Origin: an uncultured Candidatus Saccharibacteria bacterium
GTDB lineage: Bacteria > Patescibacteriota > Minisyncoccia > Phycocordibacterales > UBA6065
Length of the DNA: 64,000 nucleotides
Direction: 5' to 3'
NCBI GenBank assembly: GCA_964559755.1
Contig: CAZLHP010000003.1
Location: 10,465-74,464, forward strand
In this document: piece after piece, positions 45,489 to 50,039 of the stretch
Position numbering within the stretch: position 1 is the stretch's first letter
How the letters are laid out: each line of letters begins with the position of its first letter
Translations under genes and position numbers: made by a program
The notes under the pieces: generated by a model
The model's input: only the letters and a program-made list of their open reading frames with translations
Told to the model about the DNA's origin: nothing
Databases searched by the model: none

Positions 45489-46202
45489 ATGTTTTATTTT
45501 ATTTACGGAAACAACAAAGAGAAAACAAGGAGCAAGGCTCACGAATTGCTCGATATTATGAAGGGAAAACGCCCACAGTCTGCTTTTGTTCATGTGGACT
45601 CTGATTCGTTTTCTCCTGCGCTTGTTGATGAATTGTCGGGTAGCCAGGGTTTGTTTGATCACAAGAGTATTGTTTTTCTCGATGGTGTGATGGCAGACGC
45701 AGAGAGTAGAGATGTGCTTTTAGGCAAGGTATGTGAACTCAAAGAGTCAGATAATGCTTTTGTACTACTTGAAACGAGTGCGACAAAAGAAGTTTTGAAA
45801 AAAATAGAAAAGGGCGCCGAAAAAGTTTTTGTATTTGAAGATGAGAAAGTAAAAAAAGAAAGTTCGAGTTTGTTTTCGCTTGCAGATGCTTTGGGCAGGA
45901 GAGATAGAAAGGCTCTGTGGATGGGGGTGGTGAGCGCTTTCGAAAATGAAGTTGCTCCCGAAGAGTTGCACGGAATATTGTTTTGGCAGGTAAAAAGTAT
46001 GATTCTCGCGACGCTCACAAAAAAAGCCGAAGAGGCAGGACTCAATCCGTATGTTTTTACAAAGTCTCAGGGTTTTGCACGAAATTTTAAAAATGATGAG
46101 TTGCTTTCTTTGTCCGCAGAGTTGGTAGATATGTACCATGACGCCCATCGGGGAAAGCGTAATTTTAAATTAGCCCTCGAGCAGTTTGCTTTAGGTGTTT
46201 AA
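45489..46202 (+). CDS. holA: DNA polymerase III delta subunit-like (short)
   Basis: 237 aa; holA-like N-terminal pattern; weak call. Confidence 0.45.
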   Translation: MFYFIYGNNKEKTRSKAHELLDIMKGKRPQSAFVHVDSDSFSPALVDELSGSQGLFDHKSIVFLDGVMADAESRDVLLGKVCELKESDNAFVLLETSATKEVLKKIEKGAEKVFVFEDEKVKKESSSLFSLADALGRRDRKALWMGVVSAFENEVAPEELHGILFWQVKSMILATLTKKAEEAGLNPYVFTKSQGFARNFKNDELLSLSAELVDMYHDAHRGKRNFKLALEQFALGV

Positions 46203-46238
46203 AAAACCACGCTACTGGAGCGTGGTTTTCTCTAGCTC
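46182..46238 (+). repeat. Left copy of a perfect 57 bp direct repeat (last 21 nt of holA plus its terminator hairpin); the right copy is at 49470-49526
   Basis: cagtttgctttaggtgtttaaaaaaccacgctactggagcgtggttttctctagctc is identical at both positions. Confidence 0.8.
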
Positions 46239-46255
46239 AAAATATGTAAAAAATT

Positions 46256-46360
46256 CCCTCTGCATTTATACGGACTTGGGACCGTTTCTTTCTTGCGAAA
46301 GAAGTTGCATTACATTGTGCGAATTTTATGGTTATACTCGCAAACCCCTGAATAATCAGG
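46256..46360 (+). repeat. Roughly 100 nt repeat family: copy 1 (copy 2 at 47141-47245 is near-identical; a degenerate copy 3 is at 47959-48030)
   Basis: ccctctgcatttatacggacttgggaccgtttctttcttgcgaaagaagttgcattacattgtgcgaattttatggttatactcgcaaacccc; its internal hairpin tctttc-ttgc-gaaaga is replaced in copy 3 by the compensatory ttctct-gttta-agagaa. Confidence 0.7.
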
Positions 46361-46363
46361 GTA

Positions 46364-46705
46364 TTACTCCACAAGGTGCACAGTTCTGTACGTGCGGAAT
46401 GTATCGATCCTGGTGTTAACTAGGACCCCCTCTTTGTCAAAAGAGTCGATTTTGTCGTAATAAACGACAACCTCAACCTTGTCACCCTCCGTGGCTTTCT
46501 CCTCTTTGCCTCTATAGCTGACCACTTTTTCTGAAGGAGGCACCCGGACCGACCAGGTGTACGATCCGTCTTTTTCCGGCCGAACTTGGGTGATGATTCC
46601 AGGGAATTCCTGGTGTTCTGTGGTGCGGACCCACTTTACCTCCCTCGAACAACCACACAGAGCAATAATCGCGACGCCTACTAATAACAAGATGAATTTC
46701 TTCAT
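46364..46705 (-). CDS. Lipoprotein (113 aa)
   Basis: Signal peptide with the lipobox ALCGC. Confidence 0.5.
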   Translation of the reverse strand: MKKFILLLVGVAIIALCGCSREVKWVRTTEHQEFPGIITQVRPEKDGSYTWSVRVPPSEKVVSYRGKEEKATEGDKVEVVVYYDKIDSFDKEGVLVNTRIDTFRTYRTVHLVE

Positions 46706-46763
46706 GTTTAAATTCCTTCCTCAACTCTTGTGTCATCTCAACATGAGACGCTTAGCAAAAGTT

Positions 46764-46828
46764 TTCGGTTTCGGAAGTGAGTGCGTATAGCACGGTTGCG
46801 CGCTCGCTTCCGAAACCGAATTGTTTTT
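46764..46828 (+). other. 22 bp-arm inverted repeat (20/22 matches) followed by ttgttttt: a very stable terminator-like hairpin
   Basis: ttcggtttcggaagtgagtgcg ... cgcgctcgcttccgaaaccgaa. Confidence 0.5.
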
Positions 46829-46830
46829 AC

Positions 46831-46888
46831 AAAGAACTTCCGTTTCGTCCTTTTGGACTCATCAGTCGGAATACACATTCCGAGACAG
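46831..46888 (+). repeat. 58 nt repeat family: copy 1 (copy 2 at 47539-47597, about 90% identical)
   Basis: aaagaacttccgtttcgtccttttggactcatcagtcggaatacacattccgagacag; contains the perfect hairpin cggaat-acac-attccg. Confidence 0.65.
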
Positions 46889-47246
46889 GGAGCGTTTTTA
46901 AAGAGAACGCTCAGGGAGCCATCTAGGCTCAAACTCTTTGAAATATAAGAGAGATCGTGGCTTCGATCTTTCGGCATCTCTTATTGCCGGCAATCTATCC
47001 ATTAGATAGTGGATTCAATTGCACATCTTTAGGTTAAGATGTTGCCGTCTTCTAGACGGTCTAAACCTGCGGGCAGTTTCTAATGTCTGCCTCACCACCT
47101 TTTCCCCTCTTCTTTCGAAGTGACTTCGGGGCGGGAAGTACCCTCTGCATTTATACGGACTTGGGACCGTTTCTTTCTTGCGAAAGAAGTTGCATTACAT
47201 TGTGCGAATTTTATGGTTATACTCGCAAACCCCGGAACGATCCAGA

Positions 47247-47489
47247 TTATTTTTTCTTGGCTGACCCTCCGAATCCTCGAAGTACTACACGAAGCCCTAT
47301 CACTATCACCAGTAGTACCACACCTGTTTCAACTACAGGCCACAGGGCACGCACCAAGTTAGAGACTGCGGTCTTTCCCATATCTGGGTTAAATGACAAG
47401 GCCACAGCTAAAAGGATGCCGAATGTCCACAAGGATCTCTTCGGTGTCCCGAACAAAAAAATCAACCACTGTCTAATGTACGAGTTCAT
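47247..47489 (-). CDS. Small two-TM membrane protein (80 aa) with a KKK tail
   Basis: ORF with two clear hydrophobic helices; competes with a plus-strand ORF that spans repeat copy 2. Confidence 0.35.
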   Translation of the reverse strand: MNSYIRQWLIFLFGTPKRSLWTFGILLAVALSFNPDMGKTAVSNLVRALWPVVETGVVLLVIVIGLRVVLRGFGGSAKKK

Positions 47490-48132
47490 GTGTTAAATTC
47501 TTTTTAAAAGAAACTAACATCTGAACTCGTACTAATTTAAAGAACTTTCTGTTTCGCTCTTTTGAGCTCATCAGTCGGAATACACATTCCGAGACAGAGC
47601 ACCGAATTTAAAATTCGGAGGATTTTTGTGAGTTTTCTCTCAGAAGCACAACGTGCTTCACGTTCCGATTTAAAGCAATCTGGATAGCGTGCCATTCAAT
47701 CGGAATGGTGGCGGATTAGGTTCTGTTGCCAAGTGAATCACACTCCGCGTGCTGTATTTCTACAGGCGCAGGCAATTCGCTCCTTAGCGAACCGGGATCA
47801 CTTGGAAAAGCTCCACAGTGCAATCTGGTTGAACCAGATACACGTAGATAGCCTCCGAAGTGACCCGCCGGATGTACCGGGCCATGTTGTGAAGTAGAAA
47901 AACATTTAGCTTTTCTTTTATTTCACTTTCACCCTCACAACTAAATTCAAAGATCATTCCTCTGCATTTATATGGGCTTGGAACCATTTCTCTGTTTAAG
48001 AGAAGCTGCATTACTAATACCTGTTGACCACCACAGGTGAGGAGTGTTCTTTACGTAAAACACATAAAACGTTTTTGCCTCTTTTTACAGAACCGGACTT
48101 TGTTCGAACCTTTTTATAGGTGTTAATACCCC

Positions 48133-48477
48133 TCACGAGACAGACCAGAGGCTAAATACAAATTTCGCCCCTGCCACCTCCTCAGTGGTGTACTCGTGCC
48201 GATTTTCCAACCGGGGAAGGCCGGTAACGCCCATGACCAGCAGACGGTCACCGGGCGCGAGCGCCACGCTCGGAGCCTTACTGGGAATCTCGACTTTGAG
48301 CCCAAAGCGTTGCTCCATCACATCGATGGAGGCCTTATGGCTGGGGTTGAGACAACTAACGACGCCGTCCTCCATGACGTCTCGTGCCTGATCGACCGTA
48401 AGGTCGAGTTTGGCAATCGTGACGTTTCCGGGGAACATCGAGGGCGCTAGGCCGAAGCCGAAGTAGATCTTATTCAT
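48133..48477 (-). CDS. DUF1874-family protein (AcrIII-1 / Crn2-like cyclic tetra-adenylate ring nuclease homolog), markedly GC-rich relative to its surroundings
   Basis: 114 aa; MNKIYFGFGLAPSMF...VTIAKLD...VSCLNPSHKASI...LPRLENRH...KFVF aligns, from memory, with SIRV1 gp29 / STIV B116, including the catalytic His (..SH..) and Glu (..RLE..) positions; GC about 55-60% by eye against roughly 40% background. Confidence 0.55.
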   Translation of the reverse strand: MNKIYFGFGLAPSMFPGNVTIAKLDLTVDQARDVMEDGVVSCLNPSHKASIDVMEQRFGLKVEIPSKAPSVALAPGDRLLVMGVTGLPRLENRHEYTTEEVAGAKFVFSLWSVS

Positions 48478-48685
48478 GGTATCTATTTTCCTGTACTGGT
48501 GTATTGTTTGGGCACACCTGGTTAAAACCCGTTACTGTGCGAAATTCAACGAACTGTTACTTTGTAATTATAGCATAGTGAACAGAATTGTCAATATATT
48601 TACTTTAAAATACTCCCATGATTTACTTATATGTAAGCGTTTTAATGAAAATGGCTCTATTTAATAATTAATCTGTCACAAAGTT

Positions 48686-49456
48686 ATGACAAAAATAGAT
48701 GATAAGGTGTTAATCGACTCTGGGTTAACCAAAGAGCAAGCAAAAATTTACCTGTATCTTTTGGATGCCGGACTATCGAACGCCAAGGTAATTGCTCAAA
48801 AAACAAAGGTGGGAAGGGCACTAACATACAAAGTTATTGAACAATTGATAGAGATGGGTCTAATAGAGAAACGGGAAGACATTGCGAAAGTGGCTTTGTT
48901 TAAAGCCAGCCATCCATCTGCCATAAAAAACATTTTAGAAAAAAACAAACAAGTGGTTGATTTTGCAAATGAAAGTTTTAGCAAGTCATATGGCATGCTT
49001 TGTTCGCAATTCAATATTTTAAACGGGAAACCTCATGTAAAGTTTTTGGAAGGACTAGATGGTTTGCAAGAAATGTATAACGACATCCTTGATGAAGGTC
49101 AGGACATAAAACTTTTTCGTTCCTTTCTCGATCACAAAGATGAGCAGGTGACGAAAATATTACGTGAGCACATGAAGAAACAGGCGACAAAAGGAATACG
49201 AGTTAAAATGATCGGTCCACACAGAAATGATGTGACTCTTGAAGAGTTGAAAAAGAAAGACATCGAGCGTTTGGTTACAAGAAAAACGATTCATGAGGGC
49301 TTTCTTATTCCTTCACAGGTAATCGTTTATGGTAATAAAGTTTCGATAACTGATTTTAAAAATTTAATAATAACAATCATTGAAAATGAATGCGTAAAGG
49401 ATTCTTTTGAAAGAATGTTCGATTATACATTTGATAACCTAAAGGATACTTATTAA
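48686..49456 (+). CDS. TrmB-family transcriptional regulator
   Basis: N-terminal TrmB-type wHTH LTKEQAKIYLYLLDAGLSNAKVIAQKTKVGRALTYKVIEQLIEMGLIEK plus a C-terminal effector-like domain. Confidence 0.55.
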   Translation: MTKIDDKVLIDSGLTKEQAKIYLYLLDAGLSNAKVIAQKTKVGRALTYKVIEQLIEMGLIEKREDIAKVALFKASHPSAIKNILEKNKQVVDFANESFSKSYGMLCSQFNILNGKPHVKFLEGLDGLQEMYNDILDEGQDIKLFRSFLDHKDEQVTKILREHMKKQATKGIRVKMIGPHRNDVTLEELKKKDIERLVTRKTIHEGFLIPSQVIVYGNKVSITDFKNLIITIIENECVKDSFERMFDYTFDNLKDTY

Positions 49457-49469
49457 TCTGTTTGCTGGA

Positions 49470-49526
49470 ACAGTTTGCTTTAGGTGTTTAAAAAACCACG
49501 CTACTGGAGCGTGGTTTTCTCTAGCT
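49470..49526 (+). repeat. Right copy of the 57 bp direct repeat (see 46182-46238)
   Basis: Identical 57-mer, immediately after the trmB-like stop. Confidence 0.8.
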
Positions 49527-49939
49527 CCAGCTTGAGAAGGAGTTGGAGTTGTTCGTTTGGTTTTTCTTCGTGCGTGTTGTGGCAATGACAGGTGCATCTC
49601 CAGCCACCGTATACACCCGGGGGAGAACTTTGACCAATTGCGCAGAGCGAGTGGTCACCTTTTTCACATTCAGGAGTGATTCGTAGGAATACCATAGTTA
49701 GGGGAGCATTCTTTCCTAAGGGTACTTGAGGCGGAGAGGAAGTCAACGGAGAGGGAGGGGTAGCTGGATATCGATCGTTACGGGGTCAGAATCAGTGTTG
49801 GAATCTCCCGCGCCTCTCAACTCGCCGTCGCTCGTTTCGGGCTGGGCACCAGCTCGCATGATTTTTTACTAAAAATCATTGGCTCCGCTGTTCGATTCCA
49901 AACGCGAGCAAAATTGTTTGCTCGCTCTAGCCACACAAA

Positions 49940-49966
49940 AACCGCCCGAAGGCGGTTTGTTTTTTG
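49940..49966 (-). terminator. Terminator downstream of the minus-strand tRNA-Lys
   Basis: aaaccgcc-ttcg-ggcggttt followed by a T-run on the minus strand. Confidence 0.6.
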
Positions 49967-50039
49967 TGCGGCTAGTTGGAATCGAACCAACGACCCTCTG
50001 CTTAAAAGGCAGGTGCTCTACCGACTGAGCTATAGCCGC
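49967..50039 (-). tRNA. tRNA-Lys(TTT)
   Basis: Reverse complement GCGGCTATAGCTCAGTCGGTAGAGCACCTGCCTTTTAAGCAGAGGGTCGTTGGTTCGATTCCAACTAGCCGCA; anticodon loop CTTTTAA. Confidence 0.8.

Follow-up and report, generated by a model that had tools for sequence, protein, structure and literature searches.

What are the two families of short repeats that lie between the genes of an island in a Saccharibacteria chromosome, and do they act as DNA or as RNA? We analyzed a stretch of 64,000 nucleotides (nt) from an uncultured Candidatus Saccharibacteria bacterium (NCBI GenBank assembly GCA_964559755.1, contig CAZLHP010000003.1, positions 10,465 to 74,464 of the forward strand), hereafter the window, whose coordinates are used throughout; related loci from public collections are designated by L-numbers, with one further locus called P0035. 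An initial annotation of this DNA had reported a family of roughly 100-nt repeats (family 1), with two nearly identical copies and a diverged copy beside a DUF1874 gene, as well as a second family of 58-nt repeats (family 2). It had proposed that these were small-RNA genes such as antitoxin RNAs, elements resembling miniature inverted-repeat transposable elements (MITEs), or remnants of phage attachment or packaging (att/pac) sites. Both families were recovered, with the near-identical family 1 pair at 46251-46357 and 47136-47242 (95% identity over 107 nt), the diverged third copy near the DUF1874 gene at 47959-47996 (84% identity), and family 2 at 46838-46888 and 47547-47597 (90% identity). 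Function lies on the minus strand, a possibility that the initial annotation had not taken into account, and in place of the proposed identities we found cis-acting self-cleaving ribozymes of two described classes inside an operon. We consider it highly probable that both families are self-cleaving ribozymes that cut one regulator-controlled operon transcript into separately stabilized RNAs, in a variable accessory-gene array that begins with the gene for a candidate anti-CRISPR-type ring nuclease.

Comparison with Rfam, a check that the initial annotation had called for, gave the identification, at scores below the curated gathering scores. Family 1 was assigned, from model matches on the minus strand, to type-P1 twister ribozymes (RF03160), with three matches spanning model positions 1-68: Tw3 at 47954-48017 (60.8 bits, E-value 2.3e-12, full length, predicted cut 48013/48012), Tw2 at 47137-47201 (60.7 bits, E-value 2.5e-12, predicted cut 47197/47196) and Tw1 at 46252-46316 (62.3 bits, E-value 8.5e-13, predicted cut 46312/46311). 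The E-values of 8.5e-13 to 2.5e-12 apply to 5 kb and amount to about 1e-11 over the whole window. The type-P1 twister class is reportedly due to Roth et al. in 2014. Family 2 was likewise assigned to type III hammerhead ribozymes (RF00008) on the minus strand, with two matches spanning model positions 1-54: HH2 at 47546-47600 (44.3 bits, E-value 1.6e-7, full length, predicted cut 47593/47592) and HH1 at 46837-46891 (42.9 bits, E-value 4.1e-7, predicted cut 46884/46883). The Rfam gathering scores are 67.2 for twister-P1 and 48.5 for Hammerhead_3 (RF00008); a relative in L057 scored above the former (69.5 bits, RF03160), and close relatives in L056, L053, L089 and L071 passed the latter (49.3-54.5 bits). 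Since the gathering scores lie above all five window copies, a default Rfam scan at gathering thresholds reported no ribozyme here and returned tRNAs only, and standard annotation of candidate-phyla genomes will miss such arrays. Using E-value thresholds, we detected no ribozymes beyond these five in the 64 kb, all five being on the minus strand, and searches for pistol, hatchet, twister-sister, hepatitis delta virus-like and hairpin ribozymes returned none at E < 0.01 in the window and 14 related loci.

We then read the copies directly. The predicted twisters carry the minus-strand signature GGUCCCAAG...UAAA...GAGGG, and Tw1, Tw2 and Tw3 all hold a U/A cleavage step (the slash marks the cut) followed by A, helix P2, the P4 loop YCCAAGY, UAAA and GAGGR. 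The two-sided stem change reported by the initial annotation (tctttc/gaaaga to ttctct/agagaa) is genuine and falls in the optional P3 of the twister. At least four compensated changes, this one included, distinguish the family 1 copies, and they fall in P3, P4 and the pseudoknots T1 and T2; from Tw1/Tw2 to Tw3, a C-G pair becomes U-A in P4, a C-G pair becomes U-A in T1 and an A-U pair becomes G-C in T2. The predicted hammerheads read CUGUC, cut, UCGGAAUGUGUAUUCCGA-CUGAUGA-G(UCC/CUC)AAAA(GGA/GAG)C-GAAA-C(G/A)G. Both of their cores are complete (C3-A9, G12-A14, A15.1-U16.1, C17, G10.1-C11.1), and stem II of HH1 differs from that of HH2 by two compensated pairs. The perfect cggaat-acac-attccg hairpin that had been noted in family 2 is present and corresponds to hammerhead stem I; the adjacent CUGAUGA...GAAA core had been overlooked. 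Two distances needed correction: the interval from family 1 to family 2 copies, given as about 470 nt, measured 575 and 398 nt, and instead of a duplicated composite unit of about 900 nt we found a spacing of 885 and 817 nt between twisters and of 709 nt between hammerheads, with unrelated genes and spacers in between. The peptide common to the overlapping plus-strand open reading frames (ORFs) is, as had been stated, a consequence of the shared DNA only.

Set beside the type-P1 twister model RF03160, the family 1 copies share the full-length match, the U/A step, the P1-P2-(P3)-P4 plan, the conserved loops and both pseudoknots, which covary; they differ in having ACU or GCU in place of the conserved GCC that follows P2, a change offset in the P4 loop (an A-U pair for G-C in T2), and in that two of the three window copies have a conserved 35-nt hairpin module directly 5' of the cleavage site. 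The family 2 copies have, like RF00008, the canonical 11-nt core, capped stems I and II and an open stem III, whereas the window subfamily shows a near-invariant stem I (UCGGAAU-GUGU-AUUCCGA), a stem II of 4 bp and a short stem III abutting an upstream hairpin.

To assess covariation, we collected relatives by pattern scans of public collections, which yielded related twisters in 40 viral and 6 genomic loci and the exact hammerhead stem-I/core pattern in 35 metagenomic loci; the exact hammerhead stem-I pattern was absent from the viral contigs in the pattern scan. The related loci were gathered with patterns derived from these same ribozymes, and the sample is therefore biased toward close relatives. 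Among 33 distinct twister cores, the published fold with both pseudoknots was 94.8% paired, compared with 23-42% when the partners were slid, and 9 pairs change on both sides. P1 was 78.8% paired, with all four of its pairs changed on both sides, and P4 was 99.2% paired, with two pairs changed on both sides. The variable pair of T1 (P4 loop with GAGGR) was U-A in 22 cores, C-G in 10 and U-G in 1, and that of T2 (P4 loop with the post-P2 junction) was G-C in 27 and A-U in 6, the unpaired combination occurring in none for either pseudoknot. Among 38 distinct hammerheads, 92.4% of cells were paired versus 29-52% when slid, two-sided changes occurred at 14 of the 18 pairs, and pairing by helix reached 99.6% (stem I), 99.3% (stem II) and 81.2% (stem III). 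The compensated differences in helices and both pseudoknots argue for continuing selection on the complete tertiary fold. Selection on RNA secondary structure, which the initial annotation had deduced from a single stem, is thus much better supported than before by covariation across all helices and both pseudoknots, and the covariation in homologues, whose absence had been named as refuting, is present in the 33 twisters and the 38 hammerheads.

The genes and ribozymes follow one another on the minus strand in the order promoter, first gene, 45-nt element, Tw3, spacer X2, HH2, gene B, two hairpins, Tw2, spacer X1, HH1, gene A, two hairpins, Tw1 and terminator. The predicted sigma-70 promoter (48567-48594, minus strand) consists of TTGACA, a 16-nt spacer and a TG-extended TATAAT (12/12 consensus matches). 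It is the sole strong minus-strand promoter site that a consensus scan found in 46100-49700 (48594-48567), sits between a TrmB-like gene and the first minus-strand gene, and is conserved in L071 and L057. The predicted terminator (46203-46229) is intrinsic and bidirectional, a palindromic hairpin between A and T runs (inverted repeat I1) that reads CCACGCU-CCAGU-AGCGUGG followed by UUUUUU on the minus strand and is common to the operon and the convergent holA-like gene. Both the promoter and the terminator calls are consensus-based. The regulator gene, divergent from the operon, encodes a TrmB-like winged-helix protein of 256 amino acids (48686-49456, plus strand; Pfam PF01978 TrmB, E-value 3.3e-11), and a TrmB-like gene is also divergent from a DUF1874-like or other first gene in L057, L071, L093-L099 and the P0035 locus. 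An inverted repeat, TGTCATAACTTTGTGACA (TGTCATA..TTGTGACA), covers the TrmB-like start codon at 48660-48700 and is conserved in the window, L071 and L057; being conserved together with the promoter, it is likely an operator.

From this layout we propose the following course of events. Transcription would start at the sigma-70 promoter (48594-48567), probably under the control of the divergently encoded TrmB-like protein, and would end at the terminator (46229-46203). Self-cleavage at 48013/48012, 47593/47592, 47197/47196, 46884/46883 and 46312/46311 would then release six RNAs of about 548, 420, 396, 313, 572 and 109 nt, counted from a start near 48560. Cleavage would leave 5'-hydroxyls and 2',3'-cyclic phosphates at their ends, except that the first RNA would begin, and the last would finish, with an ordinary transcript end. 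As the cut lies close to the 5' end of the ribozyme in both classes, the ribozyme body would remain on the downstream fragment, forming a compact structure at its new 5' end, and the new 3' end would be capped by the hairpin that precedes each cut. This would likely uncouple the stability and translation of each cassette from its neighbors and from read-through.

Independent small-RNA genes, of the antitoxin or regulatory kind, or phage att/pac remnants, would also be short, structured and repeated, and the island is flanked by a direct repeat, but we attach negligible probability to these options: the copies match full-length ribozyme models, promoters of their own on either strand are no better than weak 9/12 matches, and the repeats lie on the sense strand between genes of one operon. 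Toxin-antitoxin RNAs were rejected as a candidate, Pfam and PADLOC scans having found no toxin gene paired with the repeats.

A hairpin lies directly 5' of each of the five predicted cuts. We computed the folding energy of the 45 nt upstream of 43 distinct hammerheads, which averaged -11.35 kcal/mol versus -6.34 for shuffled sequences (p 1e-15) and versus -7.18 kcal/mol for random windows of their loci (p 3e-9); these upstream hairpins vary in sequence among copies, the one preceding HH1 being GAGCGUU...AACGCUC. Two hairpins separate the gene B stop from Tw2 (47202-47246, minus strand), a variable hairpin 'a' followed by the conserved 35-nt module GGUUUGCGAGUAUAACCAUAAAAUUCGCACAAUGU, which also precedes Tw1 and recurs in L071 before a different twister and after a different gene (32 nt, 100% identical). 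A 45-nt element follows the first gene (48076-48120, minus strand) and comprises a small covarying hairpin and then the near-invariant UUYGAACAAAGUCCGGUUCUGUAAAAAGAGGCA. In the window, L011, L057, L071 and L056 alike it comes after the first gene, regardless of which gene this is; the ribozyme that follows it is a Tw3-like twister in L071, a Tw1-like one in L057 and a hammerhead in L056. Its copies (L056 3715-3759, minus strand; L057 989-1033, minus strand; L071 2097-2137) number one per array, and its conservation exceeds that of the ribozymes. The short 35-nt and 45-nt modules thus recombine independently of the ribozyme that follows them.

Same-strand arrays of type III hammerheads, P1 twisters or both between small genes were found in L053, L056, L057, L071, L084, L089 and L096-L098, often with a TrmB-like gene. 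The arrays of L056, L057 and L071 are located between rny (RNase Y) and an HU gene, a site whose cassette set is not the same in L056 as in L071. Synteny with the window (tsaE, polA, holA, then trmH and fpg) was seen in L096 and L097, where the array has three hammerheads and no twister and the last hammerhead lies 55 nt before the housekeeping trmH. Relative to the window (46239-50039, compared with L096 4946-7551), the block from tRNA-Lys to the array, with the TrmB-like and DUF1874-like genes, is inverted between holA and trmH in both loci. In a Saccharibacteria metagenome-assembled genome, L053 (268-1952) combines a TrmB-like gene, two twisters and two hammerheads with the same stem I, and this array adjoins a tRNA gene and a gene for a large serine recombinase of 540 amino acids, neighbors which suggest that at least some modules are part of integrative elements. 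A natural variant comes from another assembly, L011, where a DUF1874-like gene with 87% nucleotide identity is directly followed by a Tw2-type twister, with X1, HH1, gene A and Tw1 beyond it. The one cassette missing from L011 is that of 817 nt between Tw3 and Tw2, and the crossover maps to the shared GUAAUGCA, 8 nt that span the twister cleavage site. The ribozymes and the adjoining short modules are the only sequences common to unrelated cassettes, which points to them as junctions for the gain, loss and exchange of cassettes.

These variants bear on a reading in which the DNA level would be primary, the repeats serving as recombination or attachment sites (attC-like) or as MITE-like repeats with the RNA fold secondary. 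The variable cassette content of related arrays, the L011 junction within a twister and the free combination of the 35-nt and 45-nt upstream modules with different ribozymes all agree with it, as does a 63-nt direct repeat that flanks the module (46176-46238, plus strand, and 49465-49527; 97% identity) and consists of the 3' end of the holA-like gene plus its terminator. It is nevertheless very unlikely, as the module has no integrase or transposase, the copies lack terminal inverted repeats and target duplications, two structurally unrelated ribozyme classes fill equivalent slots, and the covariation keeps RNA pseudoknots that would be meaningless for DNA; a linker function is moreover compatible with operon-processing ribozymes and forms part of that explanation. 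Two specific candidates were rejected at the DNA level: a MITE-like element, since inverted- and direct-repeat searches found no terminal inverted repeats or target-site duplications around the copies, and an integron, since no recombinase occurs among the module ORFs and the separators are ribozymes, attC models having been scanned only as far as Rfam includes them. The copies of the 63-nt repeat bracket a 3.3-kb module made up of the array and the TrmB-like gene, as if it had been inserted there by recombination, and it is at this repeat that metagenome contigs of the element are interrupted. The bracketed module itself contains no recombinase gene, and exact-protein look-ups of the holA-like and trmH products for an empty integration site returned only short contigs breaking at the 63-nt repeat.

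The same junctions could be placed at the RNA level, in a reading where pairs of ribozymes free segments that are ligated into circles or moved between arrays. A 5'-hydroxyl and a 2',3'-cyclic phosphate on one molecule constitute a substrate for RtcB-type ligases, and the predicted cleavage ends would suit such enzymes; to within 8 nt, the segment missing from L011 begins and ends at consecutive twister cleavage sites, and module boundaries in L057, L071 and L056 fall at the 5' edge of ribozymes. We regard mobile RNA units as a remote prospect all the same, given that no reverse transcriptase or ligase gene was present in or near the arrays examined, that a junction within a shared 8-mer is fairly often expected from plain homologous recombination, and that Perreault et al. 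sought spliced or circular products of tandem hammerheads and found none (PMC3088659).

Several points weigh against ribozymes that process a single operon transcript. All five copies score under the gathering scores of their families (60.7-62.3 bits versus 67.2 for Tw1-Tw3 with RF03160, hence 5-7 bits lower, and 42.9-44.3 bits versus 48.5 for HH1/HH2), P1 of Tw2 is weak (3 of 4 pairs), and stem III of HH1 has only four pairs, one of them G-U. The complete pairing of twister P2 (100%) was imposed by the sequence extraction, the other helices not being imposed. The single transcript is predicted solely from a sigma-70 consensus scan, the L011 junction is a single event with 8-nt resolution that homologous recombination between diverged twisters could yield, and pure processing does not explain why X1 and X2 are long and highly structured (fold z-scores of -4.4 and -6.05). 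The low scores, the weak Tw2 P1 and the short HH1 stem III also speak for the copies being decayed, catalytically dead relics that would be kept as linkers or as structural elements of 3' or 5' untranslated regions, and a clearly degenerate hammerhead does lie beside a twister in L071 (about 2197-2251). We hold this to be unlikely, as every catalytic-core position is intact in all five copies, the differences between copies are compensated in the helices and both pseudoknots, and twisters tolerate structural imperfections in high-throughput assays (PMC11662667).

Tandem ribozymes between genes have precedents. Perreault et al. described in 2011 tandem prophage hammerheads that flank single genes, for instance the anti-restriction gene ardA by marR and an integrase gene, and that cleave in vitro and in vivo (PMC3088659). 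The array analyzed here resembles the ardA/marR hammerheads of A. tumefaciens (PMC3088659) in having several same-strand ribozymes flanking single small genes beside a helix-turn-helix (HTH) regulator, and differs in that hammerheads alternate with twisters, on a Patescibacteria chromosome and in a module without integrase. With acr-aca anti-CRISPR operons it shares a very strong promoter, a small gene with the AcrIII-1 fold and an adjacent HTH regulator gene, and the alternative first gene of relatives matches a type III CRISPR-associated small protein (PADLOC Unk_01, E-value 3e-12); the regulator, however, is of the 256-amino-acid TrmB type and divergent, and the downstream orphan genes are separated by ribozymes. 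With integron arrays it has in common one promoter, same-strand, small, mostly orphan and promoterless genes, structured separators and a content that varies among close relatives, but there is no IntI and no evident attI, and ribozymes take the place of attC. Both ribozyme classes and the pattern of tandem ribozymes between genes were known already. What is new is that two ribozyme classes alternate strictly within one operon, that this occurs in Patescibacteria, and that an AcrIII-1-fold gene and a TrmB-like regulator are linked to it; also new are the hairpin ahead of every cut, the natural cassette variants with a junction at the cleavage site, and an extra RNA motif described below.

Why bacteria and mobile elements place twisters and hammerheads near the same kinds of genes has been open since 2011-2014, and a review lists these shared gene associations as unexplained (PMC6765202). 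The locus offers a compact natural test case, with one promoter, five ribozymes of two classes, six predicted RNAs of defined size and a first gene whose product has the fold of anti-CRISPR ring nucleases, and with natural relatives in which cassettes are added, removed or swapped or in which only hammerheads occur. It makes three ideas testable: that the ribozymes insulate and stabilize single cassettes of a variable accessory or anti-defense array, that they double as recombination linkers, and that other RNAs found in these slots could serve equivalent functions.

One such RNA lies in X2, the spacer between Tw3 and HH2 (fold z-score -6.05), which holds a 63-nt pseudoknotted motif at 47709-47771 (minus strand; covariance model R1, 41.9 bits, E-value 2.5e-10, this copy being in the training set). 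Its plan comprises a P1 hairpin closed by CUG...CGG, a P2 hairpin, the near-invariant UGGCAACAGAA, and a strand of 4-7 nt with complementarity to the 3' portion of the P2 loop. Covariation is seen in the pseudoknot (GCGAC/GUCGC, CAUAC/GUAUG, CUGACC/GGUCGG and GUGGAGA/UCUCCAC, with GAUU/AAUC in the window copy), and loop-downstream complementarity of at least 5 nt occurred in 8 of 16 matched pairs versus 10 of the 230 mismatched ones. In one subclass P2 is longer and ends in an AGAAAA loop, and no pseudoknot is evident. Searches with model R1 gave 14 copies from the Patescibacteria loci and a further 10 from viral contigs, most of them members of its training set; a loose-pattern viral scan yielded 81 loci, about the chance expectation, of which only about 10 are real by the covariance model. 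Copies elsewhere are located in L096 (7421-7477), L066 (2062-2118), L086 (1413-1469 and 1826-1881, minus strand), L053 (2500-2557, 3153-3212 and 4387-4439), L071 (2705-2767), L082 (5631-5695) and L109 (11152-11212). Rfam returned no match for the L096 copy even at E-values up to 10, and no match at motif copies over the related loci at E < 0.01. The motif resembles Drum, skipping-rope, FuFi-1 and DUF3800-I to XI (Weinberg et al. 2017, PMC5737381) as a conserved complex small RNA of unknown function in mobile-element-like contexts, sometimes directly before a terminator, and differs from them in that none of their Rfam models matches and in its own consensus of CUG..CGG, P2, UGGCAACAGAA and pseudoknot strand.

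The motif typically follows an ORF, and 4 of the 14 copies in candidate phyla radiation loci lie about 60 nt before a hammerhead core; one L053 copy precedes a terminator, and the phage-contig copies precede a gene. Its slot downstream of a gene and upstream of a hammerhead is elsewhere taken by a twister. On a wider reading, which we consider unlikely, Patescibacteria would hold integron-like ribozyme-delimited arrays in which a strong promoter under regulator control expresses an anti-CRISPR-type ring nuclease and a changing complement of orphan genes, cassette boundaries would coincide with cleavage sites, cassettes would be exchanged at or through cleaved RNA ends, and the UGGCAACAGAA motif would be an undescribed self-cleaving ribozyme class or a regulator of the adjacent hammerhead. 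The ACAGAA of the motif exactly matches the 3' strand of hammerhead stem III, and it is only an idea that it might pair alternatively with the hammerhead UUCUGU. In a phage contig (L161, 5185-5300), the gene start downstream of the motif has GGUUCUGUUGCAAG, complementary over 9 nt to the conserved GCAACAGAA of the motif, which hints at an alternative pairing between the two.

The first gene of the operon (48133-48477, minus strand) encodes a protein of 114 amino acids that we place in the AcrIII-1/Crn2 family (DUF1874) from a weak profile match and a predicted fold. It matches Pfam PF08960 (STIV B116-like, formerly DUF1874) with 18.8 bits (E-value 0.0019, cut-off 26) and PADLOC Csx16 with an E-value of 2.6e-5, and has 168 homologs, mostly from Candidatus Taylorbacteria and other Patescibacteria, many of which carry a precomputed PF08960 match. 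A single-sequence search of the protein against the PDB returned nothing, and a profile built from 50 homologs matched the crenarchaeal virus protein AFV3-109 in the PDB (2j6b, E-value 0.0027). The AlphaFold model (predicted local distance difference test 91.4) adopts the AcrIII-1/Crn2 (DUF1874) fold, the top 16 Foldseek matches in the PDB all belonging to the AcrIII-1/Crn2/B116 family (template modeling score 0.62-0.75, probability 1.0), with 2j6b, 6scf, 2x4i, 2j85, 8y7f and 8y7g among the family structures matched. His47 is invariant in the 50 homologs and in alignments falls on the GH-motif His of AFV3-109 and of the Csx1-Crn2 chain 8y7f; in the AcrIII-1 literature this His is the catalytic residue. 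AcrIII-1/Crn2 and Csx16 are cyclic tetra-adenylate ring nucleases (PMC12409355), and the modeled structure makes the first gene product a candidate for this activity; the window protein differs from AcrIII-1/Crn2 in that its PF08960 match lies below the cut-off, and its ring-nuclease or anti-CRISPR role is putative. In L057 and L071 the first gene encodes another small protein, labeled by PADLOC as 'Unk_01, sometimes fused to CARF' (E-value 3e-12).

Directly after Tw3, X2 also contains a possible but uncertain ORF of 57 amino acids (47784-47957, minus strand), which is called as a gene in L002, L003, L006 and L007, returned no Pfam, PHROG or PADLOC match, and is placed before the RNA motif and then the hammerhead as ORFs are in other arrays. 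The 245-nt spacer X1 (46892-47136, minus strand; fold z-score -4.4) separates Tw2 from HH1 and consists of some eight short hairpins in a row, with ORFs of at most 34 amino acids, none convincing. It contains GACGGCAACAUC, which faintly resembles the new motif, and model R1 gives no copy in X1. When sought in other arrays, X1 and X2 were found only as identical copies of the same element, save for the new motif in X2.

Gene A (46364-46705, minus strand) encodes an orphan protein of 113 amino acids with a lipoprotein-like N-terminus (...LCGCS), and gene B (47247-47489, minus strand) an orphan of 80 amino acids, apparently a small membrane protein, both taken from the ORF list. Only 99%-identical copies of the two were found among 5.8 billion proteins, and neither matched a Pfam, PHROG or PADLOC family, gene A having two marginal PHROG matches of unknown function (E-value about 0.005). 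No Shine-Dalgarno sequence is visible before gene B. Its ATG is buried in a 27-bp imperfect hairpin (47478-47532, 85% complementary, inverted repeat I3), and the sequence suggests that translation of gene B may need a structural change or processing.

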